A DNA stretch of 64,000 bases, from contig JAFXIQ010000041.1 of NCBI GenBank assembly GCA_017533005.1, positions 440 through 64,439 on the forward strand, read 5' to 3'. The notes under the pieces were generated by a model that saw nothing but the letters and a program-made list of their open reading frames with translations, ran no database searches and was not told the origin of the DNA. The DNA is from Clostridia bacterium (GTDB lineage: Bacteria > Bacillota > Clostridia > Christensenellales > DTU072). Positions 46,333 to 58,171 of this stretch are shown one piece after another (position 1 is the first letter of the stretch; each line of letters opens with the position of its first letter). The position numbers and the translations under genes were made by a program.

Positions 46333-48054
46333 ATGCTGAAAGAAGAATATCCTCGTCCAAATTTCATAAGACCACGTATCAACGTTCTAGATGGAGAATG
46401 GTTTTTTGCCGACCAAATAAACGAGAATTTCAACTGCTTCGATAGCGCTTGTTACGACAAAAAAATCATCGTTCCTTACGTTCAAGGAACCGAAAAATCC
46501 GGCGTTGAAGGATATTCGCCCGACGTGTGGTACATGCGCGAATTCGAGTTGTCCGCGTCCGAACTTATGGGACATATTCTTTTGAATTTCGGTGCCGTCG
46601 ATTTCCGTGCAGACGTATTTTTAAACGGCAACTTCATTTTTTCTCACTCCGGTGGTTATACGCCTTTTACGATAGACATATCTAGCGTTGCTACGGAAGG
46701 TAAAAATATCCTTGCCGTTCACTGCATAGATTCGCTAACCGAAGAAGGACTACCACGTGGCACACAAAAGGACGCAAACGATAACGGACTATATCCCCCA
46801 ATGACGGGTATATGGCGTAGCGTTTGGTTAGAATTCACAGCACACTCTTATTTCGCTTCAATTCACCCACAGGCAGACGTTCTACAAAAAGCCATCTTTC
46901 TCACCGGAAATATTTACGGCGACATAAAAGACCTACTCATAAACGTAGAACTCTCCTACGACGGTAAGCCTATAGGCAATTTCGCATATCCAGCGAAACA
47001 AAATTATAAAATTTGTATACCGGTTAAAGAGCCAATTCAATATTGGATGCCTATGGAAGGTAGACTTTACGACGTAAAAGTCATGCTTCGCAATAAAAAA
47101 CATGGTATACTAGATATGGTGCATACCTATTGCGGTTTCCGTAGCTTAGCTGTTGATAACAATAGGTTTTACATTAACGGATATCCCTATTTCTTGAGAC
47201 AAGTTTCGGACCATTGTTACTACCACGAAAGCGGTTACTCCGTACCATCGGTAGTGGCACTAAAAGACTACTTGATAAAAGTTGGAATGCTAGGATTTAA
47301 TGGTATAAAAATCACTAAATGTATTCCTTCGCCCAAATACGTTTACCTTGCGGACAAACTAGGACTCGTACTTAACGTGGGGCTTCCTACCGAAAACGCT
47401 TTCCCCGAAAACTCACCTTGCAAACCAGTGATGTTTTCAGAAATACAAACCACGCTTTCTGCATACTTCGGGTGCCCATCTATCGCTATTTGGGGCTTAT
47501 ACGAGCAATTTGACGGAAATCCTAACGATGCATACGAAACGTATAATTTCGTTAAATCGATAGACCCTACTAGGATAATAACGACTTCTATGGGTGGCAA
47601 ACAGTACCCTACCGATATATACGACGTTAACCTTCAAAAGGTAGCCAACTACGACGAGTTAAGACACACGCTTCTCGTCAAAGATCAAGCCGACGGACTA
47701 TCGGATAGAGCGATTAAAAAGCTCTATACTAGTGACCCACTACTACTCACTCCAAACGCTATTCACAGCATACCAGAGTACGTATCTAGCTTCTCCGTAG
47801 GCGCGCTTACGCGCTATGACGAGCCACCTATCGGCAATAGTTACGAAGACCAATTTTTAGAACGCTTCTATCACTTCGCCACTACCATCATGGCGACGGG
47901 AGCTATAGGCTACGTCTATGATACGCTCTTCGATTACGGCGAAAAAAGAACGGGTCTATTATCAACGAATAGGCAATACAAACTATCCAGAAAATCAATT
48001 TCAAAACTTCGTGCAATTAACAAATTCCGTGCACGTTGTGAATCGCAACAATAG
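46333..48054 (+). CDS. Glycoside hydrolase family 2-like protein
   Basis: 573 aa. EYPRPNF, LNFGAVDFRADVFLNGNFIFSHSGGYTPFTIDIS, which parallels the other GH2 at 30618-32366. Confidence 0.75.
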   Translation: MLKEEYPRPNFIRPRINVLDGEWFFADQINENFNCFDSACYDKKIIVPYVQGTEKSGVEGYSPDVWYMREFELSASELMGHILLNFGAVDFRADVFLNGNFIFSHSGGYTPFTIDISSVATEGKNILAVHCIDSLTEEGLPRGTQKDANDNGLYPPMTGIWRSVWLEFTAHSYFASIHPQADVLQKAIFLTGNIYGDIKDLLINVELSYDGKPIGNFAYPAKQNYKICIPVKEPIQYWMPMEGRLYDVKVMLRNKKHGILDMVHTYCGFRSLAVDNNRFYINGYPYFLRQVSDHCYYHESGYSVPSVVALKDYLIKVGMLGFNGIKITKCIPSPKYVYLADKLGLVLNVGLPTENAFPENSPCKPVMFSEIQTTLSAYFGCPSIAIWGLYEQFDGNPNDAYETYNFVKSIDPTRIITTSMGGKQYPTDIYDVNLQKVANYDELRHTLLVKDQADGLSDRAIKKLYTSDPLLLTPNAIHSIPEYVSSFSVGALTRYDEPPIGNSYEDQFLERFYHFATTIMATGAIGYVYDTLFDYGEKRTGLLSTNRQYKLSRKSISKLRAINKFRARCESQQ

Positions 48055-48061
48055 GTGATAC

Positions 48062-49330
48062 ATGAAAGAGCAAATCATATTTTCAAAAGAAACCGGTAAC
48101 GCCAATAATTATCGCATTCCTTCTCTCGTGGCTACTACGAGGGATACTCTCGTTGCTTGTTGTGACGAAAGATTTTTTACCGGAAGCGATAACCCTAATC
48201 GCATCGACAAAGTAATTCGCATCAGCCACGATAACGGAGAAACCTGGGGCGAACAAATTACAGCAGTAGAAGAATGTGGTAAAGACAAAGAGCACGCTTC
48301 TTCAGCAGTTGACCCCGCAATGCTCTACGACAAGGATACTGCTACACTGCATATGATTTATTCACACACTCCTGCAGGCGTAGGAATTCTAAATTGTGCC
48401 AGATCAACCGGTTACGATAAAAACGGCAACAAGCTATACGTTATGGGAAGAAAGAAACTCTCTCTCATCAATGGTGAACTATATTATAAAGGCAAGTCAA
48501 TCGGCATAAAAGTTGATGAGAATGGTCAACTCTCCGATGGTAGCGGTTGCGTTTACGACGGCAGTGCTCCCATAAGAGAAATGGGGACTTCTTTCTTATA
48601 TCACACAATTTCAAAAGATAACGGCGAAACTTGGGAAAAGCCTACCTGCTTAAATTTACAAGTTAAAAATCCCGGTTGGGGATTTATAGGAGCGTGCCCG
48701 GGTAACGGACTAAAGACTTCTAAAAACAGACTCATCTTCCCTATTTATTACGGAGTAAACAAAGCTCCCCTATCTCTAACTTTCGCTACGATGTATTCAG
48801 ACGATGGTGGACTTAACTGGAAGATAGGTAAAACACCGAAAATGGGTGGCAGATTCCCAAAGAACAATCCTATACTAATCATAAATTCTTGCATGCTCAC
48901 CGAAACTCAAATTATAGAGCTCCCTGATGGTACGCTAAAAGCCTTTATGAGAAACCATAAACCACGAAGAAGAATCCTAATCTCGACTTCCACGAATGGT
49001 GGAGAAACTTGGTCAGACCCCGTATTCCACGATGAACTCACCCATCCTATTTGCCAAATATCGGCAATTTCATTCGTTCACGAAGGCAAATTCTACGTCC
49101 TTACAATAAACGCTTCTTCGACGAAAAAACGCGAGCGCGGTGTCGTTCGCTTGAGTGAAGACGAAGGCAAAACCTTCCCCTATTCATACCTTTTGAAAGA
49201 AGGTGAATTCGTATATTCATCTGCGCAATACCTATCGGACGGCACGATTGGCATTCTATACGAAGACTCTACACAACACGAAAACATCAAATTTACAAAA
49301 ATAACTATAGACCAAATAAAAGGAGTATAA
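48062..49330 (+). CDS. nanH: Exo-alpha-sialidase (GH33)
   Basis: 422 aa. YRIPSL (RIP motif) and five Asp-box-like repeats: SHDNGETW, SKDNGETW, SDDGGLNW, STNGGETW, SEDEGKTF. Confidence 0.9.
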   Translation: MKEQIIFSKETGNANNYRIPSLVATTRDTLVACCDERFFTGSDNPNRIDKVIRISHDNGETWGEQITAVEECGKDKEHASSAVDPAMLYDKDTATLHMIYSHTPAGVGILNCARSTGYDKNGNKLYVMGRKKLSLINGELYYKGKSIGIKVDENGQLSDGSGCVYDGSAPIREMGTSFLYHTISKDNGETWEKPTCLNLQVKNPGWGFIGACPGNGLKTSKNRLIFPIYYGVNKAPLSLTFATMYSDDGGLNWKIGKTPKMGGRFPKNNPILIINSCMLTETQIIELPDGTLKAFMRNHKPRRRILISTSTNGGETWSDPVFHDELTHPICQISAISFVHEGKFYVLTINASSTKKRERGVVRLSEDEGKTFPYSYLLKEGEFVYSSAQYLSDGTIGILYEDSTQHENIKFTKITIDQIKGV

Positions 49331-49332
49331 CA

Positions 49333-50220
49333 ATGACAGACGTCTCTTCTAAACTCAAGGGAATTTTCCCCGCACTACTCACACCGTTTAACGATGATGA
49401 AAGTATCAATACCGAAGCTCTAACAGCTCTAGTTAAACGCCTTGCTTCAAAAGGCGTTCAAGGCTTTTACGTAGGTGGTTCTACCGGTGAAAGCATGGTT
49501 ATGTCTAACGAAGAAAGAAAACTCGTTTTCAAAACCGTAAAAGAAGCTTGCCCTGATAATCTAGCTTTAATTGCTCACGTAGGCGCTATTTCTACAGAAA
49601 TGGCTATCGATATGGGTAAATACGCTAAATCTCTAGGCTACACTGCAATAAGCGCAGTAGCTCCCTTTTACTATTCATTCAAGCTAGAAGAAATTCTACA
49701 ATATTATCGTGATATCGTTAATGCTGTAGATATGCCTATGATTATATACAACTTCCCTCTAGCAGGTGGATTCAGCCTAACCCCAGCAATCGCAAAAGAG
49801 CTCTTTGCAGACCCACGTTTCGTAGGTATCAAACATACTTCTAACGATTTCTTTGCTCTAGACGGTTTCAGACAAATTTCCGACAAACTAGCTCTCTTCA
49901 ACGGCTATGATGAAGTTATGCTCGCAGGCCTAGGAATGGGCGCAAGCGGTGGTATCGGTAGCACTTATAACGTTATGCCCGAGAAGTATCTCGCTCTATA
50001 CGAAGCATTCAATAACGGCGAAATTAAGAAAGCTCAAGCTATCCAAAAAGAAATCTGTGAAATCATTCGCGTTATGATTAAATGCGGTGTTATGCAAAGT
50101 GAAAAGTACCTAGTTTCAAAAGCCGGAATCCCTATGGGTGACTGCCGTAAGCCTTTCTCAAAACTAACCGAAGAAAGCAAGAAACTACTAGATTCTATCA
50201 CTTCTCTAAACTTTAACTAA
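49333..50220 (+). CDS. nanA: N-acetylneuraminate lyase
   Basis: 295 aa, DHDPS/NAL family. GGSTGE, YNFP, GIKHTS Schiff-base lysine region. Confidence 0.88.
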   Translation: MTDVSSKLKGIFPALLTPFNDDESINTEALTALVKRLASKGVQGFYVGGSTGESMVMSNEERKLVFKTVKEACPDNLALIAHVGAISTEMAIDMGKYAKSLGYTAISAVAPFYYSFKLEEILQYYRDIVNAVDMPMIIYNFPLAGGFSLTPAIAKELFADPRFVGIKHTSNDFFALDGFRQISDKLALFNGYDEVMLAGLGMGASGGIGSTYNVMPEKYLALYEAFNNGEIKKAQAIQKEICEIIRVMIKCGVMQSEKYLVSKAGIPMGDCRKPFSKLTEESKKLLDSITSLNFN

Positions 50221-50240
50221 ACCCATTATGAAATAATTAA

Positions 50241-50268
50241 GACAACGCTATAGCGTTGTCTTTTTTTT
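50241..50268 (+). terminator. Rho-independent terminator after nanA
   Basis: Stem GACAACGC pairs with GCGTTGTC, loop TATA, followed by T8. Confidence 0.8.
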
Positions 50269-50283
50269 ATTAAAAGCAACTTA

Positions 50284-50312
50284 TTGCACAAACCTAGAAA
50301 ATAGTATATAAT
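50284..50312 (+). promoter_or_regulatory. Promoter of the ATPase-DUF1538-PII operon
   Basis: TTGCAC (50284-50289), 17 nt, TATAAT (50307-50312). GGAGA lies before ATG 50348. Confidence 0.6.
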
Positions 50313-50347: not shown

Positions 50348-52849
50348 ATGGAAAACACCACTGACATAAAAGCAGAAGAGCTATTTACAACCGACCTAAA
50401 ATCAGGACTCACTAGTCAAGAAGTTGCTACTAGAGTTTCCGAAGGGAAGGTTAATGGCAATCAAAACGTTAAAACAAAAAGCATTTGGCAAATAATCAGG
50501 ACTAACACGTTTACGTTCTTCAACGTATTATTTGCTATTTTTTCTATTATTATAATCGCATTTGACTTAGGACTATCCGAACTAGGTTTTCTAGTGATTG
50601 TTATCTTCAACCTTGCTATCGGTATCGTACAAGAAGTAAAAGCAAAGCGCACTATCGATAAGTTGTCGCTTATTTCTGCGCCAAAAGTAACTGCGTTAAG
50701 AGATGGAGTAGAGTGCGAAATCAAGCTCGAAGACATCGTTATGGACGACTTAATACTTCTAGAAACAGGCAATCAAATTTGCGCCGATGCTAGAATTATA
50801 GAAGGCACTATCGAAGTTAACGAATCTCAAATAACCGGTGAGCCTGACGCTATTACAAAGAACCCTGGTGACGAAATATTTTCCGGAAGTTTCATAGTGT
50901 CTGGGCGTGCTGTTTCGCAAGTTATTCGCATAGGTAAAGATAACTATGCAACCAAGATTTCTTCCGGTGCAAAATATATCAAAAAAACTAGCAGTCAACT
51001 TATGATTTCGCTTATGCGCTTTATCAAACTTATGACTGCAATCATAGTTCCTCTCGGCATAATTCTTCTTTGTACCAAGCTTCTCATACAAAGCCTTGAT
51101 TATAAAACTGCGCTACTTGATACGGTAACCATGATGGTTTCTATGATTCCGTCCGGACTAGTTGCGCTCACCTCTGCCGTTTTCTGCGTATCGGTCGTAA
51201 GGCTATCTAAACACAAGGCGCTAGCGCAAGACCTCTATGCAGCAGAGTCGCTTGCTCGCGTTGACGTGCTTTGTCTTGATAAAACCGGAACGATTACGGA
51301 AGGCACTATGGAAGTGCACGAAGTAAAAGCTGTAAACATAGAATACGATGAATTACTACACTTAATCAAAAACGTAGTAACGGCGATTGGAGATAATAAT
51401 CCCACTGCTAACGCTATGAAAGAATATTTAACGTCTACTTACGTTACCGAAGAAACTCAAGACGTAATTCCCTTCTCTTCCGCAAGAAAATGGAGTGGAG
51501 CAAATCTTTCTTCTGGTGGTTACGCAATAGGCGCTTGTGAATTCATACTTAAAGAAACCACTGAAGAAATTGATAACACTATCAAAGAGTATTCCGAAAA
51601 AGGATATCGCGTTCTAATTGTTACTAGAAGTGCGTCCCCTATCATTGACAACACTTTAAACGACGATATGACGCTCATCGGTTACATCTTTATAACTGAT
51701 AAAATACGTCAAGAAGCTCCCGAAACTCTTGCGTATTTTGCAGAGCAAGGCGTTACAATTAAAATTATTTCCGGAGATAACCCCGTAACAGTTAAGAGTA
51801 TAGCCGAACGTGCAGGCGTTCAAAACGCCGATAGCTACGTAGACGTTTCCACATTGTCTGATGATGAAATTGCAGACGCTATAGAGAACTACACGGTTTT
51901 CGGTCGCGTTACTCCAGATAGAAAGCTTGCATTTGTAAAAGCACTAAAAGCAAAAGGTCATACCGTTGCTATGACAGGCGACGGCGTTAACGACGTTCTC
52001 GCACTCAAAGAAAGCGATTGCTCCGTTGCTATGGCTGCCGGCTCCGATGCTGCTAAAAACGTTTCTCAAGTTGTTCTCCTTGATAGCAATTTCGCAAGCA
52101 TGCCGAAAATCGTTGCCGAAGGCAGACGTTCTATCAATAACCTTGAACGCTCGGCTTCATTGTTCCTAGTAAAGACTTTTTACAGCTTGTTCCTTGCTAT
52201 TACCTTCCTATTTATTCACGAAGAACTCCCATATTCGTTAATAAACCTAACGATTTTGAGTGGTTTGTCGGTAGGACTTCCTTCGTTTATACTTGCACTC
52301 GAGCCAAATAAAGAACGTGTTAAAGGTAAATTCCTTGATAAAATTATTTTCCGTGCTCTCCCTGGCTCGATTTGTATAGCTATAGTCGTAATCGCTATGA
52401 CTCTGCTAAAAGCTTTCATTCCATCACTAGAGAGCGCATTTACAGCACAATACTCATTCGAGACAACTTGTATACTTGTTATGGCGTTCGTTTCGTTTAT
52501 GTACCTATTTAGAGTTTGTATGCCGTTCGATAAAGTGCGTGTCGTTCTCTTTATCGGTATGCTAGCGTTGTATATCCTAGCGTTTATTATTTCTCCGTAC
52601 ATCGTAAAAATCATACCTGCTTTGGACTTCAAGCTAACGCACGACCTTCCCATGGAATCTCTATACGTAGCGCTTCCTATGGCCGTTATCACGGTTCCCA
52701 TCTTCTTACTAATGACAAACGCGTTGTCATCGGCATCAGAAAAAGAACCAATAAACCGTATGTTAGACAAGTTGAAAGACGTAACATTCCCCTTCTATGC
52801 AAGAGTCGGCAATCGCGTTAAAAATCTATTCACGAGAAAGCATAAATAA
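50348..52849 (+). CDS. Cation-translocating P-type ATPase (type II/III-like, substrate unknown)
   Basis: 833 aa. Phosphorylation site CLDKTGTITEG and hinge TGDGVNDVLALKESD. The N-terminus is Cation_ATPase_N-like, GLTSQEVATRVSEGKVNG. The TM4 region reads MIPSGLVALT, which is neither CPC nor PEGL. Confidence 0.88.
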   Translation: MENTTDIKAEELFTTDLKSGLTSQEVATRVSEGKVNGNQNVKTKSIWQIIRTNTFTFFNVLFAIFSIIIIAFDLGLSELGFLVIVIFNLAIGIVQEVKAKRTIDKLSLISAPKVTALRDGVECEIKLEDIVMDDLILLETGNQICADARIIEGTIEVNESQITGEPDAITKNPGDEIFSGSFIVSGRAVSQVIRIGKDNYATKISSGAKYIKKTSSQLMISLMRFIKLMTAIIVPLGIILLCTKLLIQSLDYKTALLDTVTMMVSMIPSGLVALTSAVFCVSVVRLSKHKALAQDLYAAESLARVDVLCLDKTGTITEGTMEVHEVKAVNIEYDELLHLIKNVVTAIGDNNPTANAMKEYLTSTYVTEETQDVIPFSSARKWSGANLSSGGYAIGACEFILKETTEEIDNTIKEYSEKGYRVLIVTRSASPIIDNTLNDDMTLIGYIFITDKIRQEAPETLAYFAEQGVTIKIISGDNPVTVKSIAERAGVQNADSYVDVSTLSDDEIADAIENYTVFGRVTPDRKLAFVKALKAKGHTVAMTGDGVNDVLALKESDCSVAMAAGSDAAKNVSQVVLLDSNFASMPKIVAEGRRSINNLERSASLFLVKTFYSLFLAITFLFIHEELPYSLINLTILSGLSVGLPSFILALEPNKERVKGKFLDKIIFRALPGSICIAIVVIAMTLLKAFIPSLESAFTAQYSFETTCILVMAFVSFMYLFRVCMPFDKVRVVLFIGMLALYILAFIISPYIVKIIPALDFKLTHDLPMESLYVALPMAVITVPIFLLMTNALSSASEKEPINRMLDKLKDVTFPFYARVGNRVKNLFTRKHK

Positions 52850-54414
52850 TGTTAAAAAACCTTGCTAAAAAATTACTAGAATCGGCTTTATCCGTCCTTC
52901 CTATCGCAATAGTTACGATAGCTGTTGCGCTCATTTTCACGGATATTGACGGTTTACAATTAGCAAGTTTTTCTATAGGCGCGGTCTTTTTGATAGTTGG
53001 TATATGCTTATTCACGTTAGGCGCAGATATTGCAATGCTAAATATCGGTAGAGAAATCGGTGCATATATGTCAAAAAGTCGCAAAATGTGGTTTATTCTA
53101 CTCATAAGCTTCATTATGGGCGTGATTATCACTATTGCAGAGCCAGATTTAACCGTTCTAGCTAAACAAATAGGTTCTAATACCATTATATATATCGTTG
53201 CTTTAAGCGTTGGTGTTTTCTTAGTAGTTTCTATGCTGAGAACGTTCTTAAAAATTAAATTGTCCTACTTACTACTAGCGTTATACGGCATTGTCTTCAT
53301 TCTTGCAATTTTTGCGCCCAAGGAATTCGTTCCACTGTCCTTTGACTCTGGTGGCGTTACGACCGGGCCTATCACCGTTCCGTTTATTATGTCACTAGGT
53401 ATAGGTCTTGCTTCCGTTCGTGGTGGCAATTCTTCTACAGAAGACTCTTTCGGCACTATTGCGCTTTGTTCGATAGGTCCTATACTTGCAATGCTGATTT
53501 TATCAATGACAGGCGTTATAAACTACGAAGAAACGAGTAGTAATGTGCTTGTAATAGATAGTTTCCGTGACGTTGTCATATCGTTTTTAACCACTATACC
53601 ACACACTATGAAAGAAGTTGCTATTGCACTTCTTCCCATCGCTGTAGCGTTCATAGTGTTCCAAATTTTCTTCATAAAACTACCTAAAGCAAAACTACTG
53701 CAAATCATAATAGGCTTCGTTTATACCTATCTAGGCTTAACCATTTTCTTAACCGGCGTTAATGCAGGCTTTATGCCCATGGGAAGTGAACTTGGTTCAC
53801 AACTCGCTGGCTCTGAGTTTAAATGGCTCCTTGTGCCTTTGGGCGCTCTTATCGGTGCGCTAGTCATGCTCGCAGAACCTGCGGTTCACGTTCTTAATAA
53901 ACAAGTAGAAGAACTAACTGGTGGCGCGATTAAACGCTCCACGATGTTGGTATGGTTATGTATAGGTGTATCCATTGCAGTTGCACTAAGTATGGTGCGT
54001 GTATTAACGGGAATAAGCATTTGGTGGATATTAGCTCCCATGTACGGTATTGCACTTGTATTAACGTTCTTCGTTCCTACTATGTTTACGGCAATAGCAT
54101 TCGACTCAGGTGGCGTAGCATCCGGCCCACTCACAGCAACGTTTATGCTACCACTTGCAACGGGAGCTTGCGCAATGCTAAACAGTGATATTTTAACCGA
54201 TGCTTATGGACTCGTTGCATTCGTAGCCCTTGCTCCACTAGTTACTATTCAGCTATTAGGTTTGATTTATACAATTAAACTAAAACTCTCGAAACCCACA
54301 ATTAAGGATACTGAACTTCAAACTAAAGATAGCGAAATTGTTGATTTCGATATAATTAATATAGACACGGAAGAAATAAATAAGGAGGTAGACGATAATG
54401 GATACGACCATTAA
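52849..54414 (+). CDS. Internally duplicated DUF1538-family membrane protein
   Basis: 521 aa, polytopic. Two homologous halves carry SFDSGGVTTGPITVPFIMSLGIG and AFDSGGVASGPLTATFMLPLATG. The start overlaps the ATPase stop (TAATG). Confidence 0.75.
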   Translation: MLKNLAKKLLESALSVLPIAIVTIAVALIFTDIDGLQLASFSIGAVFLIVGICLFTLGADIAMLNIGREIGAYMSKSRKMWFILLISFIMGVIITIAEPDLTVLAKQIGSNTIIYIVALSVGVFLVVSMLRTFLKIKLSYLLLALYGIVFILAIFAPKEFVPLSFDSGGVTTGPITVPFIMSLGIGLASVRGGNSSTEDSFGTIALCSIGPILAMLILSMTGVINYEETSSNVLVIDSFRDVVISFLTTIPHTMKEVAIALLPIAVAFIVFQIFFIKLPKAKLLQIIIGFVYTYLGLTIFLTGVNAGFMPMGSELGSQLAGSEFKWLLVPLGALIGALVMLAEPAVHVLNKQVEELTGGAIKRSTMLVWLCIGVSIAVALSMVRVLTGISIWWILAPMYGIALVLTFFVPTMFTAIAFDSGGVASGPLTATFMLPLATGACAMLNSDILTDAYGLVAFVALAPLVTIQLLGLIYTIKLKLSKPTIKDTELQTKDSEIVDFDIINIDTEEINKEVDDNGYDH

Positions 54415-54739
54415 ACCTATCAAACTTACCATTATAATAACGGATAGAAGTCGTTCGAAAAAGGTAACGAAAACCCTCAACGCTCACGGCTACGACTATC
54501 AATTCGCAACAACGGCAAAAGGCACTGCGCCTAGTGATATTCAAGCATACTTTTGTCTAAACGAACCGGAAAAATGTATAGTCTTTTGCCCTATTGCAGA
54601 AGACCGTGTACAAGAGCTTCTTGAAGTTATTAGAAATGAACTGCACTTTGACGAGCCTAACACCGGTATTGCATTTACAGTACCTATCGGTAGCTTATCG
54701 AGTATAAATATTCTTAAATATCTCAATCACGAATGTTAA
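54398..54739 (+). CDS. PII-like signal-transduction protein (divergent)
   Basis: 113 aa. Beta-alpha-beta layout IKLTIIITDRSRSKKVTKTL... and C-terminal NTGIAFTVPI, equivalent to GlnB GDGKIFVxPV. AAGGAGG upstream; overlaps DUF1538 by 17 nt. Confidence 0.7.
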   Translation: MDTTIKPIKLTIIITDRSRSKKVTKTLNAHGYDYQFATTAKGTAPSDIQAYFCLNEPEKCIVFCPIAEDRVQELLEVIRNELHFDEPNTGIAFTVPIGSLSSINILKYLNHEC

Positions 54740-54751
54740 AAGGAGTTAATT

Positions 54752-55081
54752 ATGGAAGATAAAAAATCATTCTCATTGTTAGTAGCTATAGTAAAAAGAG
54801 GTTATTCCGAAAGCGCCATGTCTGCAGCACGTGAAGCAGGCGCTCGCGGTGGAACGGTTTTTAACGCTCGTGGAACAGGCTCATTAGAAGCTCAAAAATT
54901 CCTAGGAGTGCCAATCGAACCTGAAAAAGAAGTCTTACTTATACTCGCAGAAAAGTCCGTAAGACAAGACATTATGCGCGCTATTTATAAGGAAGCAGGG
55001 CTAGAAACAAACGGCAACGGCATTGTTTTTGCACTCCCCGTTGAAGACGTCGTAGGCGCGTTTACAAAGTTCAATAATTAA
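54752..55081 (+). CDS. PII-like signal-transduction protein
   Basis: 109 aa. LLVAIVKRGYSESAMSAAREAGARGGTVFNARGTG ... GNGIVFALPVEDVVG. AAGGAG upstream. Confidence 0.75.
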   Translation: MEDKKSFSLLVAIVKRGYSESAMSAAREAGARGGTVFNARGTGSLEAQKFLGVPIEPEKEVLLILAEKSVRQDIMRAIYKEAGLETNGNGIVFALPVEDVVGAFTKFNN

Positions 55082-55097
55082 TCTATTTCATCTAACA

Positions 55098-55126
55098 AAG
55101 AAGGCACCCTATCGGGTGCCTTTCTT
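55098..55126. terminator. Bidirectional terminator between the PII genes and dhaK
   Basis: Stem AAGGCACCC pairs with GGGTGCCTT, loop TATC. Confidence 0.75.
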
Positions 55127-55141
55127 ATTCATAGAGATTGA

Positions 55142-56947
55142 TTATTTTTTGAAGTGGTTAGCGATTTCCGTGAAGATAACGCCTAGTCCGTATGCGCCTG
55201 CATCGGGATAGCCTTCACTATCGGTAACGCCTGCTCTTCCTAGTTTAGCTTGAATGAACTTGGTTGCTTCTGCGCCTTTAACAGCAGCTTTTGCACCTTC
55301 TATCATAGTCGTAAACATTGAAGCGCCTTTCTTTGCTAGTTCGGTAAACTTGTCAGCAGTGGGAACTAGAGCGTCAATCAAGGTCTTGTCGCCTACAACA
55401 GCGCCTTTGCCGAAGCTCTTTCTACCTGTTTCTTGAACACCAAATACTGCTTGTTGTAGTAGTTCAGCAAATTCTTTAACGGTGATTTCTTTCTTACCCA
55501 TAACTGCTTTACCTGCGTAACGGAATGCGCTACCCCAGATAGGACCAGATGCACCACCACAGTATTCCATAATGATTTCTGAACAGCTTACTAGGAATTC
55601 ACCAATGTCACCTTTTTTACGGGTTGCCCAGTCTTTCTTAAGTTGTTTGAAACCTTTTGCAATACTCATACCGAAGTCGCCGTCGCCACAACGGTCAGCT
55701 TTACAGAACGGAATTTCGTTCTCGATGATAACGTCTGCCATCTTTTCTACTATAGCACCCATACCTGCCGTATTGATAACGTCGCCAACAATAGCTTCGC
55801 CTTCAAATTCGTAGGTCTTGTTTTCATCTTCTATAACTGCTTTTTTTGCGCTAGCTTTGCTTTCTTGTTTAGCTGTGAAAGCACCAGGAGTGATGTTAAG
55901 AGCTTTTGCAAGAGCGTGAATAGCTTCTTGGCAAGCAAGAGCTTCTTGAGAAGCTGCGCCCCAAGTAATAGCAGGTGTTGCTACGGGGAAGTCAAGAAGT
56001 GCTTTAAGTTCAGCGTCAAGACGTAGAACTGAAATTGATGCGCCAGCCATATCGATAGAAGTCATATAGTTACCAACCATCGTCTTGTAGATTGATAGAC
56101 CTGCTGCTTCTAGAGCGTTAGAAACGTCATTGTTGAAGAGATATAGTTCTTGTAGAGGAGTGCCACCGAAACCGTTGATTAGAAGTGCTACTTCTTCACC
56201 AGCTTTTAGTGCTAAATCTTCAATGATATCGGGAACGATTCTCGTTGCAAGTTCTTTTGAAGATTGGATTTTTTCTCTCTTTCTACCTGGTTCGCCGTGG
56301 ATACCTACGCCGAATTCCATTTCATCATCACCGATTTCGAAAGTAGGAGTTCCTGCTGCGGGAACGGTACAAGAAGTGAATGCAAAACCAAAGCTACGAA
56401 CGTTATCGATAACTTTTTGTGCAACAGCTTTAACTTCTTGTAGAGAGCCACCTTTTTCTGCTAGAGCACCAGCGATTTTGTGAACAAATACGGTGCCTGC
56501 AACGCCACGACGGCCAACTGTGTAAAGGCTATCTTTAACAGCGATGTCATCGTTTACGTAAACAGCGTCAACTTCAATGCCGTCTTCTTTTGCAAGAGCT
56601 GCAGCATTGTTGAAGTTCATGCAGTCGCCAGAGTAGTTCTTAACAATCATAAGAGTACCCTTATTGCTTGCTGTAAGCTTAAGAGCGTTGTAAACTTGGA
56701 TTTGTGAAGGAGATGCAAAAACGTCGCCACATACTGCGCAATCTAGCATACCTGTGCCAACAAAGCCTGCGTGTGCAGGTTCGTGACCTGAACCACCACC
56801 GGAGATAAGAGTAACTTTTTCTTCGTTGATTTCTTTCTTTTTAACAACTTTGAATTTTTCTACGAATTCTAGTTCTGGATGAGCTTTTGCTAAACCATGA
56901 CACATATCGTAAACAAAACTTTCTGGTGTATTAATAATTTTTTTCAT
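55142..56947 (-). CDS. dhaK: Dihydroxyacetone kinase, fused DhaK-DhaL (Dak1+Dak2) type
   Basis: 601 aa. The N-terminal Dak1 domain has SGGGSGHEPAHAGFVG. The C-terminal Dak2 domain has DGDFG and GGASGP. Confidence 0.9.
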   Translation of the reverse strand: MKKIINTPESFVYDMCHGLAKAHPELEFVEKFKVVKKKEINEEKVTLISGGGSGHEPAHAGFVGTGMLDCAVCGDVFASPSQIQVYNALKLTASNKGTLMIVKNYSGDCMNFNNAAALAKEDGIEVDAVYVNDDIAVKDSLYTVGRRGVAGTVFVHKIAGALAEKGGSLQEVKAVAQKVIDNVRSFGFAFTSCTVPAAGTPTFEIGDDEMEFGVGIHGEPGRKREKIQSSKELATRIVPDIIEDLALKAGEEVALLINGFGGTPLQELYLFNNDVSNALEAAGLSIYKTMVGNYMTSIDMAGASISVLRLDAELKALLDFPVATPAITWGAASQEALACQEAIHALAKALNITPGAFTAKQESKASAKKAVIEDENKTYEFEGEAIVGDVINTAGMGAIVEKMADVIIENEIPFCKADRCGDGDFGMSIAKGFKQLKKDWATRKKGDIGEFLVSCSEIIMEYCGGASGPIWGSAFRYAGKAVMGKKEITVKEFAELLQQAVFGVQETGRKSFGKGAVVGDKTLIDALVPTADKFTELAKKGASMFTTMIEGAKAAVKGAEATKFIQAKLGRAGVTDSEGYPDAGAYGLGVIFTEIANHFKK

Positions 56948-57019
56948 TTATAACTGTCCTCCGTTATATTATGGTTGCCTGCTAATCCTAGCAGGCAACC
57001 TACATGGTGTTTTATTTAA

Positions 57020-58171
57020 TTATTCGCAATCACAGCAACCGTATCTGAAGTCGTAACCAATCTTGTCTGCGGTCTTAATAGCTGCAGCAACCATATCTAC
57101 TGTTACAGGGAATGGCATATTGTGAACTGATTCTTCTGGAATGCAGGTCTTTTCTGCAATAGCTTTGAGCATTTCGTCGTCGATTTCATCGGTGCCGATA
57201 TCTTTCAAGCAAACGGGTAGGCCTACTGTGTCACAGAAGTTGAGAACTTCGTATAGTTCTTCTTCGGGGCTGTTTTCTAGAACTAGTTGGCAAAGAGTTC
57301 CGAATGCAACCATTTCACCGTGGAAGTATTTGGTGTGTGAAGGAAGAAGTGTTAGACCATCGTGGATAGCGTGAGCTGCTGCTAGACCAGCACTTTCAAA
57401 TCCAAGACCAGATAGAAGAATGTTGGTTTCGATGATGTTTTCTAGAGCGGTTGTAACAACGTTGTTGTCGCAGGCTGCTTTTGCTTTTGCGCCGTCTGAT
57501 AGAAGTGTTTCGTAGCAAAGTTTTGCCATAGCGTATGCTGCCATCGTTCCACCAGCTAGTAGAGTGCCTTTAGCGCGGTTAGCTCCGCAAGGTAGACCTG
57601 CGTTAACGTTTGCATAAGATTGAACGTTTGCACGTGCTTCGAAATAAGTAGCTAGAGCGTCACCCATACCTGATACTAGGAAGCGTGAAGGAGCGTTAGC
57701 GATAACTGTTGTATCGATAAGAACTACGCTTGGGCTTTGTCTGAAGTATGCATAGTCATCAAAGTGATGGTCGTCTGTATAAAGAACTGCACTGTGAGAA
57801 GTAGGAGCGTCTGTAGCTGCAATTGTGGGGCAGATGATTAGGTTTGAGCCAGCAGCAACGCATTTTGCTGTATCGATAGCTTTTCCGCCACCTAGACCAA
57901 TTGTACATGCACATTTGTTAGCTTTTGCAAAGTCTTGTAGTGCTTTAACGGTAGTACGTGAACATTCACCTTTGAAGATGTCGCCACTTGAAACAAGGGT
58001 GATACCATATTTAGCTTGGGTAGCATCTAGTTTAGCTTGAACACGTGCAATATCTGCAGGGTGTGCAATTAATAGTGCTTTTTTACCAAAGGTTTTTACA
58101 AAATAACCTAGATTTAGAAGTTCGTCTTCACCTTGAACGTACTTTGTTGGGCAAATAAATGCTTTTCTCAT
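57020..58171 (-). CDS. gldA: Glycerol dehydrogenase (iron/zinc-type ADH family) with short Cys-rich C-terminal extension
   Basis: 383 aa. GLGGGKAIDTAK, metal-ligand region AAAHAIHDG and HGEMVAFG. It ends ...GYDFRYGCCDCE. Confidence 0.9.
   Translation of the reverse strand: MRKAFICPTKYVQGEDELLNLGYFVKTFGKKALLIAHPADIARVQAKLDATQAKYGITLVSSGDIFKGECSRTTVKALQDFAKANKCACTIGLGGGKAIDTAKCVAAGSNLIICPTIAATDAPTSHSAVLYTDDHHFDDYAYFRQSPSVVLIDTTVIANAPSRFLVSGMGDALATYFEARANVQSYANVNAGLPCGANRAKGTLLAGGTMAAYAMAKLCYETLLSDGAKAKAACDNNVVTTALENIIETNILLSGLGFESAGLAAAHAIHDGLTLLPSHTKYFHGEMVAFGTLCQLVLENSPEEELYEVLNFCDTVGLPVCLKDIGTDEIDDEMLKAIAEKTCIPEESVHNMPFPVTVDMVAAAIKTADKIGYDFRYGCCDCE

Follow-up and report, generated by a model that had tools for sequence, protein, structure and literature searches.

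As signal processors, PII proteins have one of the widest distributions in biology, yet few of their transporter partners are understood, AmtB and SbtA being the examples. Proteins of a separate membrane family, DUF1538, were characterized in 2017, when UmpAB of Halomonas zhaodongensis, a pair of DUF1538 proteins, was shown to be a heterodimeric Na+(Li+,K+)/H+ antiporter (PMC5484666). UmpAB on its own, with no PII protein present, gave antiport in E. coli KNabc (PMC5484666). The UmpAB name has been applied to DUF1538 homologues in later genome papers, and a 2026 machine-learning study lists DUF1538 among the Pfam families of pH adaptation, alongside Mnh, Mrp, Kdp and Trk (PMC13255231). Here we describe a locus in which a DUF1538 gene is joined to PII-like genes. 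It lies in a 64,000-nucleotide (nt) stretch of the genome of an uncultured gut Clostridia bacterium (assembly GCA_017533005.1, contig JAFXIQ010000041.1, positions 440 to 64,439), which we call the window, and comprises genes for a P-type ATPase, a DUF1538 protein and two small PII-like proteins, PII1 and PII2. With moderate confidence, we read the locus as encoding a putative cation/proton antiporter gated by dedicated PII-like subunits and co-expressed here with a cation pump, a reading that draws on sequence comparison and on analogy with known PII-regulated transporters.

Relatives of the DUF1538 protein were scanned in one genome per species, with more than 8,000 close relatives scored. 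At least 598 species-genome loci matched DUF1538, and the best 80 (45-56% identity) were analysed. A PII-like open reading frame (ORF) lies directly 3' of DUF1538 in 78 of these 80 genomes, and one of the two exceptions ends at a contig edge. The downstream ORF in about 69 of the 80 loci encodes ~225-250 amino acids (aa), with an N-type (PII1-like) domain in front of one of C-type (PII2-like); two separate PII genes, as in the window, are found in only about 8. To judge from these relatives, the two PII genes of the window are the split, minority form of a normally fused tandem protein of ~230 aa. Paraclostridium has a fused DUF1538 with a 222-aa tandem P-II protein, and plasmids of the Alphaproteobacteria Chelativorans and Methylocystis carry two separate DUF1538 genes followed by a single "P-II family nitrogen regulator", a protein that is C-type (E ~1e-32). 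The link between DUF1538 and PII is thereby confirmed as tight, broad and present across phyla, and DUF1538 with its PII-like domains makes up a conserved core. No third conserved partner was found around this module in the 80 loci, where the largest cluster of neighbours holds 6 of 276 genes. A search of a library of 7.7 million papers found none that ties DUF1538/PF07556 to neighbouring PII genes; a match to a Borrelia 'PII superfamily' was set aside, as it concerns an unrelated YitT/DUF2179 protein.

The DUF1538 protein of the window matches Pfam PF07556 in two stretches (E 3e-132, 438.8 bits against a cut-off of 22.6). Its two halves align over 227 aa with 27% identity (E 1e-32), which bears out the internal duplication that the initial annotation had read from the letters. 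The paired motifs AEPDL/AEPAV and FDSGGVTTGP/FDSGGVASGP are invariant across 77 relatives. Invariant acidic residues (E98, D100, D166, E343, and D419) lie in the helix-break motifs of the protein, and such residues within the membrane would suit the binding of cations or protons. The C-terminal tail (residues 488-521) is disordered and acidic. Some relatives are longer, with 638-671 aa as against 521 aa here (locus L083, 9202-11217, and locus L168, 5103-7019). Both halves match the UmpA/UmpB families of NCBIfam ("Na,Li,K/H(+) antiporter subunits"; 2e-47 and 3e-41), and by these scores the protein is a homologue of UmpA/UmpB rather than an equivalog. We infer an antiport function here from this homology, with the invariant acidic residues in support. 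The substrate of DUF1538, earlier taken to be not known, had thus already been published for UmpAB (PMC5484666). The view of the cluster as uncharacterized accordingly stands in part, the family having an assigned substrate in UmpAB and cation homeostasis explaining the cluster reasonably well.

The predicted model of the DUF1538 protein is a confident one (predicted local distance difference test, pLDDT, 86.7; predicted template modelling score, pTM, 0.84). A sequence search of the PDB with the DUF1538 profile found nothing, and Foldseek comparison of the model with the PDB gave no match (best E 0.1, template modelling (TM) score <= 0.2). Analogies of fold to SbtA, AmtB, NhaA or other proteins were considered and dropped, as the Foldseek search gave nothing on which to base them.

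Of the two small proteins, PII2 is the more readily recognized. It matches Pfam P-II (E 2.5e-9, 37.8 bits against a cut-off of 25), and most of its matches in the PDB are PII chains. PII1 has no match in Pfam or NCBIfam, and a search of the PDB with its single sequence gave spurious antibody matches only. PII1 is 26% identical to PII2 (E 5e-8), and a profile built from its relatives matches mainly PII chains in the PDB. A word-indexed homologue search with PII1 gave seven proteins, and the AlphaFold2 (AF2) model was hence built on a shallow alignment. The top 50 Foldseek matches of this model (pLDDT 77) are all PII or PII-like, with probability 1.0 and TM scores of 0.5-0.7, and those at the top are PstA, CPII, GlnK1, and SbtB. 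The best of the structures, 4d3h, 4wk1, and 5drk, match at E ~2e-5 to 5e-5 with TM scores of 0.55-0.72. Family searches and modelling together confirm the predicted PII fold (double beta-alpha-beta, ferredoxin-like, with T- and B-loops) of both small proteins. The two assignments of the initial annotation, DUF1538 and PII, therefore stand, the latter by Pfam for PII2 and by profile and model for PII1.

The canonical effector site of PII proteins consists of R38, Q39, K58, G87/G89, K90, R101, and R103 (E. coli numbering), and the canonical T-loop has ~19 residues, with a modification site at Y51 or S49. In alignment to E. coli GlnB, both domain types keep only the equivalents of K58 and G89. 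The T-loops, rightly described before as short and divergent, are ~6 residues shorter than that of E. coli GlnB and have no Tyr at the equivalent of the modification site. GlnB itself is picked up by neither domain profile, N-type or C-type, at E<=10. With the canonical binding residues absent, sensing of MgATP and 2-oxoglutarate (2-OG) in the canonical way is unlikely. By sequence, PII1 and PII2 belong to a distinct PII-like subfamily, with a ligand that is not readable from the canonical site. Adenine nucleotides or cyclic (di)nucleotides are candidate ligands, only by likeness to PstA, SbtB, and CPII.

With the PII1 profile, a full-library search found 1,910 cluster representatives at E <= 1e-3, of which 615 also pass E <= 1e-10. 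Of the best 150 matches, 49 have a single domain, 96 are tandem proteins and 5 have three domains. The existence of tandem and triple-domain relatives suggests that these domains form hetero-domain assemblies. Triple-domain proteins of 330-357 aa (P0294, P0301, P0327, P0358, and P0394, library matches from outside the window) might be single-chain pseudo-trimers.

The favoured reading combines these features in the following way. The DUF1538 protein would be a secondary transporter, a fused pseudo-heterodimer with one half the counterpart of UmpA and the other that of UmpB. On its cytoplasmic face, a hetero-domain assembly of the N-type and C-type PII-like proteins would open or block the transporter in response to a small-molecule signal, as in GlnK-AmtB and SbtB-SbtA. 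Such gating would tie alkali-cation/proton exchange to the energy or second-messenger state of the cell. The ATPase, co-transcribed in this clade, would serve the same task of cation and pH balance from outside the module; it and the module probably go together as two co-regulated devices of cation homeostasis, and not as a physical complex. The synteny of DUF1538 and PII is evidence of the same kind that led to GlnK-AmtB and SbtB-SbtA, and the activity of UmpAB without PII fits a role of PII as a regulator, not a catalytic subunit.

Several points weigh against this reading. The two halves of the DUF1538 protein do not reach the equivalog level of UmpA/UmpB (NF041627/NF041628), scoring 161 and 141 bits against 490 and 500, so that the transfer of substrate spans ~30% identity. 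The UmpAB assignment comes from the complementation and vesicle assays of one laboratory in E. coli KNabc (PMC5484666). As the DUF1538 model matches no solved transporter, a mechanism cannot be borrowed. The equivalents of R38, Q39, K90, R101, and R103 are absent from both domain types in the GlnB alignment, and with these key nucleotide-binding residues gone the PII-like domains might bind no nucleotide. The proposed interaction of PII with DUF1538 and the direction of regulation are read from synteny and from the behaviour of GlnK and SbtB. Lastly, the ATPase stays linked to the module down to 57% identity despite a partly different flank, which makes a functional tie possible within the clade.

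An alternative that we consider unlikely is that DUF1538 carries a substrate other than an alkali cation, such as bicarbonate, another anion or a small metabolite, and that the PII-like pair senses either this substrate or a metabolite linked to it. In that case the Na+/H+ exchange by UmpAB would be a side activity or specific to its subfamily, and the parallel would be CPII and SbtB in inorganic-carbon uptake. The distance from the UmpA/UmpB cut-offs is in keeping with such a substrate, as is the presence of CPII (bicarbonate/ADP/AMP) and SbtB among the closest structural matches of PII1, and a fold without PDB counterpart leaves the class of substrate unconstrained by structure. However, the sole experimental datum for the DUF1538 family is cation/proton antiport, and the invariant acidic residues in the membrane are better suited to cations than to anions. 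The occasional neighbours of the module are P2A, P1B, and P6 cation pumps, not carbon-fixation genes, and the host, a gut anaerobe, lives heterotrophically and has sialic-acid and glycerol genes near the locus.

The ATPase is best compared with CtpE, the founding member of family 23 in the Transporter Classification (3.A.3.23), proposed as "P6" (PMC10654040). CtpE/P6 is described with PEGL in transmembrane helix 4 (TM4) and a hydrophobic residue at the TM6 position that is Asp in Ca pumps (PMC10654040, PMC5615198), and Ca2+ uptake by CtpE has been shown in Mycobacterium smegmatis (PMC5615198). The ATPase of the window has a Pfam E1-E2_ATPase match (1e-40), a Cation_ATPase_N domain and type II topology, and carries the core motifs DKTGT and TGDGVND. 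In NCBIfam it reaches only the generic P-type cut-off and no subfamily cut-off, and it is about equally far from the Ca, H, Na/K, and Mg pumps in the PDB. Several homologues at ~53% identity carry the Joint Genome Institute (JGI) name "cation-transporting ATPase E". We regard the protein as putatively CtpE/P6-like, a placement made by these product names and by the lack of any other cut-off reached.

The motifs noted by the initial annotation (DKTGT, GDGVND, and IPSGLV in TM4) are all present. TM4 reads MIPSGLV, with Ser in place of the usual Glu, and thus departs from PEGL. This residue is S, N or T in 30 of 30 close relatives, and E, Q, K, S, D, V or I in the wider family. On these alignments IPSGLV is characteristic of the clade, and the family as a whole varies at this site; this variety conflicts with the published description of CtpE/P6 as uniformly PEGL. 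At the TM6 position that we take to be equivalent to SERCA D800, aligned by eye with the SERCA TM6 sequence, the window has Val (S-V-G-L-P-S) and the consensus is T-I-G-I-P-S. The subclade thus appears to be without either acidic residue of the classical Ca site, and absence of the binding-site Glu makes Ca2+ doubtful as the substrate. The TM4 variants seen in the ATPase-family loci L085-L164 are PEGL, PQGL, PKGL/PKGM, PSGL/PSGM, PDGL, PVGM, PIGM, and PPGL.

The initial annotation placed the ATPase in a four-gene neighbourhood with DUF1538 and the two PII genes. The DUF1538-PII part of this proposal stood, as described above; the ATPase part did not. A metagenome scan with an ATPase-family profile gave 80 loci at 29-50% identity, and a DUF1538 or PII gene lies within 6 kb in none of them. 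Across the 80 DUF1538 loci, the module is never adjoined by a P-type ATPase from the family of the one in the window. Eight of these loci have a P-type ATPase of another subfamily within 8 kb of the module, three being P2A (PEGL) and five P1B (CPC), against a rough expectation of ~3% that assumes 6 pumps per 3 Mb and was not computed from these genomes. This proximity may reflect a mild enrichment for cation pumps, with no sign of specific partnership. In three loci a CPC-type (P1B, heavy-metal) ATPase follows the tandem PII gene on the same strand after 50-500 nt (L049, 10421-12628; L067, 5545-7752; L030, 10692-12560), and in L041 a PEGL Ca-type pump lies directly upstream of DUF1538.

The complete four-gene order recurs in three loci: L081 (ATPase 86% identical, with the same overlaps), L083 (58%, with fused PII and a 192-nt gap between ATPase and DUF1538), and L170 (57%, with split PII, an 80-nt gap and a different downstream flank). 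The translational coupling of ATPase and DUF1538 is gone in the relatives at 57-58% identity. Three PSGL-clade ATPases at 53-55% identity are without linkage to the module (3/3), and the nearest split-PII relative outside the clade has no ATPase. By these comparisons the ATPase is a lineage-specific addition, the four-gene order being confined to a clade that reaches down to ~57% ATPase identity; as a general partner of the module it had to be given up. L081 and L083 are syntenic on both flanks, and L170 keeps the upstream NanA/sialidase genes only; with flanks so shared, much of the common order can be plain vertical inheritance. The sialidase and NanA-like genes adjoin the ATPase operon in all three loci, and the GH2-like gene does so in L081 and L083 only. 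Among stand-alone PSGL-type ATPases, one adjoins an H+/Na+-pyrophosphatase gene (L173, 5001-10172) and one the gene for oxaloacetate decarboxylase beta, a Na+ pump (L171, 3180-7478), anecdotal hints of a role in the Na+/H+ economy.

It is rather improbable, in our estimate, that the ATPase and DUF1538 proteins are a true functional couple in this clade, with a common ion or recycling of a counter-ion and with both under PII control (for example, the pump exporting Na+ or K+ and the antiporter balancing H+), as the initial annotation proposed. Such a couple would be in keeping with the 1-nt overlap of stop and start codons (TAATG at 52847-52851 in the window), which is found also in the 86% relative, with a gene order that persists to 57% ATPase identity, also next to a different downstream flank, and with the other-subfamily pumps near the module in 8/80 loci, set against a guess of ~3%. 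What speaks against it is that none of the 80 ATPase-family loci carries DUF1538, that all three PSGL-clade ATPases at 53-55% identity are unlinked, that no ATPase accompanies the module in the nearest split-PII relative from outside the clade, and that gaps replace the overlap in the more distant relatives; the flanks shared by L081 and L083, and partly by L170, allow for plain vertical inheritance.

AmtB-GlnK sequestration controls DraG, and PII proteins such as GlnB, GlnK, and SbtB typically have several targets. It is nevertheless highly improbable that DUF1538 is mainly a membrane sensor or docking site (a transceptor) that in a like way sequesters the PII-like proteins from real targets in the cytoplasm: the strict DUF1538-PII pairing is equally compatible with sequestration, but UmpAB transports ions on its own, no other conserved neighbour hints at a downstream target, and the PII-like subfamily is found here chiefly beside DUF1538.

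The layout of the locus (Table 1) agrees with the earlier description, in that the four genes, the 1-nt and 17-nt overlaps, the 12-nt gap, the promoter-like site and the terminator are all seen in the sequence. The ATPase start is preceded by GGAG. The 17-nt overlap is that of DUF1538 and PII1; AAGGAGG lies 9 nt 5' of the PII1 ATG, and the 12-nt gap between PII1 and PII2 carries AAGGAG. Promoter and terminator scans of the window gave counts near chance (22 promoters against 16 expected, and 8 terminators against 6.5); as these are at about the level of shuffled sequence, the call of a single transcription unit leans mainly on gene overlaps and position. On that footing the four co-oriented genes are confirmed as one predicted operon. 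A terminator-like hairpin within DUF1538 (52905-52929) was judged a chance match, the scan total being at shuffle level. The leader (~35 nt) holds no Rfam family, an Rfam search giving only sub-threshold chance matches to GcvB and snoRNA; a riboswitch or other leader RNA, such as one for cyclic di-AMP (c-di-AMP), was rejected because the leader is too short and has no Rfam family. Directly upstream of the operon is a sialic-acid utilisation cluster (46333-50220). The kinase and dehydrogenase encoded downstream are a pair of the glycerol/dihydroxyacetone pathway, and the terminator at 55100-55123 is shared between them and the operon.

Table 1. Features of the ATPase-DUF1538-PII locus and its flanks (positions in the window)
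Feature	Position	Strand	Basis or remark
GH2-like glycosidase	46333-48054		
BNR sialidase	48062-49330		
NanA-like DHDPS-family lyase	49333-50220		
Terminator after upstream NanA-like gene	50239-50262		Signal scan
Sigma-70-like promoter, TGCACA-16 nt-TATAAT, 10/12 matches	50285-50312	+	~35 nt 5' of ATPase start
P-type ATPase gene, 833 aa	50348-52849	+	ORF, coordinates as in the initial annotation
DUF1538 gene, 521 aa, fused tandem membrane protein	52849-54414	+	ORF, Pfam, NCBIfam
PII1 gene, 113 aa, N-type PII-like domain	54398-54739	+	Profile, pairwise comparison, AF2 model; no Pfam match
PII2 gene, 109 aa, C-type PII-like domain	54752-55081	+	Pfam P-II
Bidirectional intrinsic terminator, GC-rich 10-bp hairpin	55100-55123	.	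Common to operon and convergent Dak gene
Convergent pair downstream	55142-58171	-	Single-chain Dak1-Dak2 dihydroxyacetone kinase (601 aa) and Fe-ADH-type glycerol dehydrogenase (383 aa)

The DUF1538-PII module is widespread and visible in genome annotation, and its transporter family has a single functional paper in the library searched. It is present in at least hundreds of species in Bacillota, Spirochaetota, Synergistota, and Pseudomonadota. We raise, tentatively, the further possibility that the module represents a third, very widespread class of PII-gated transporter, with a fold not found in the PDB, hetero-domain PII that has diversified into single-, double- and triple-domain forms (the last possibly single-chain pseudo-trimers) and a non-canonical ligand (e.g., c-di-AMP or a different second messenger), serving cation and pH homeostasis in anaerobes. 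Once its ligand and gating are defined, the module would add a regulated system of cation/pH homeostasis in gut anaerobes, reveal a new transporter fold, and exemplify the evolution of PII trimers into hetero-domain tandems. A smaller point concerns the ATPase: CtpE/P6 is not uniformly PEGL, and is probably not uniformly a Ca2+ family.

Among known systems, UmpAB is of the same Pfam family as the DUF1538 protein of the window and is built on the same principle of two homologous units. The units are separate in UmpAB and fused in one chain here; UmpAB was studied without a PII partner, none being mentioned in the paper (PMC5484666), whereas the window DUF1538 has a PII-like pair; and the host of UmpAB is a halophile, whereas that of the window is an anaerobic gut Clostridia bacterium. 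CtpE/P6 resembles the window ATPase in size (~800 aa) and in the hydrophobic residue at the TM6 Asp position, but has PEGL described in TM4 where the window clade has P-S-G-L (S, N or T). PstA/DarA (c-di-AMP) and CPII (ADP/AMP/bicarbonate) are the best structural matches of PII1, yet at 16-21% identity only and with no match to Pfam CdAMP_rec. As PstA and CPII score about as GlnK and SbtB do, no particular ligand is indicated. Compared with canonical PII (GlnB), the T-loops are shorter and ATP/2-OG-binding residues are missing. GlnK-AmtB and SbtB-SbtA offer the best analogy for the working of the module, since in these systems, too, a small PII-fold gene adjoins a transporter gene in near-universal synteny; the analogy is functional only, the transporter fold being unrelated by Foldseek. 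GlnK and SbtB are each encoded by a single gene and form homotrimers, whereas the PII of the window is a heterologous pair, elsewhere a tandem, of two diverged domain types. To judge from sequence and models, what is new in the module relative to the known PII-gated transporters is the different transporter fold, the tandem hetero-domain PII, and the non-canonical effector site.

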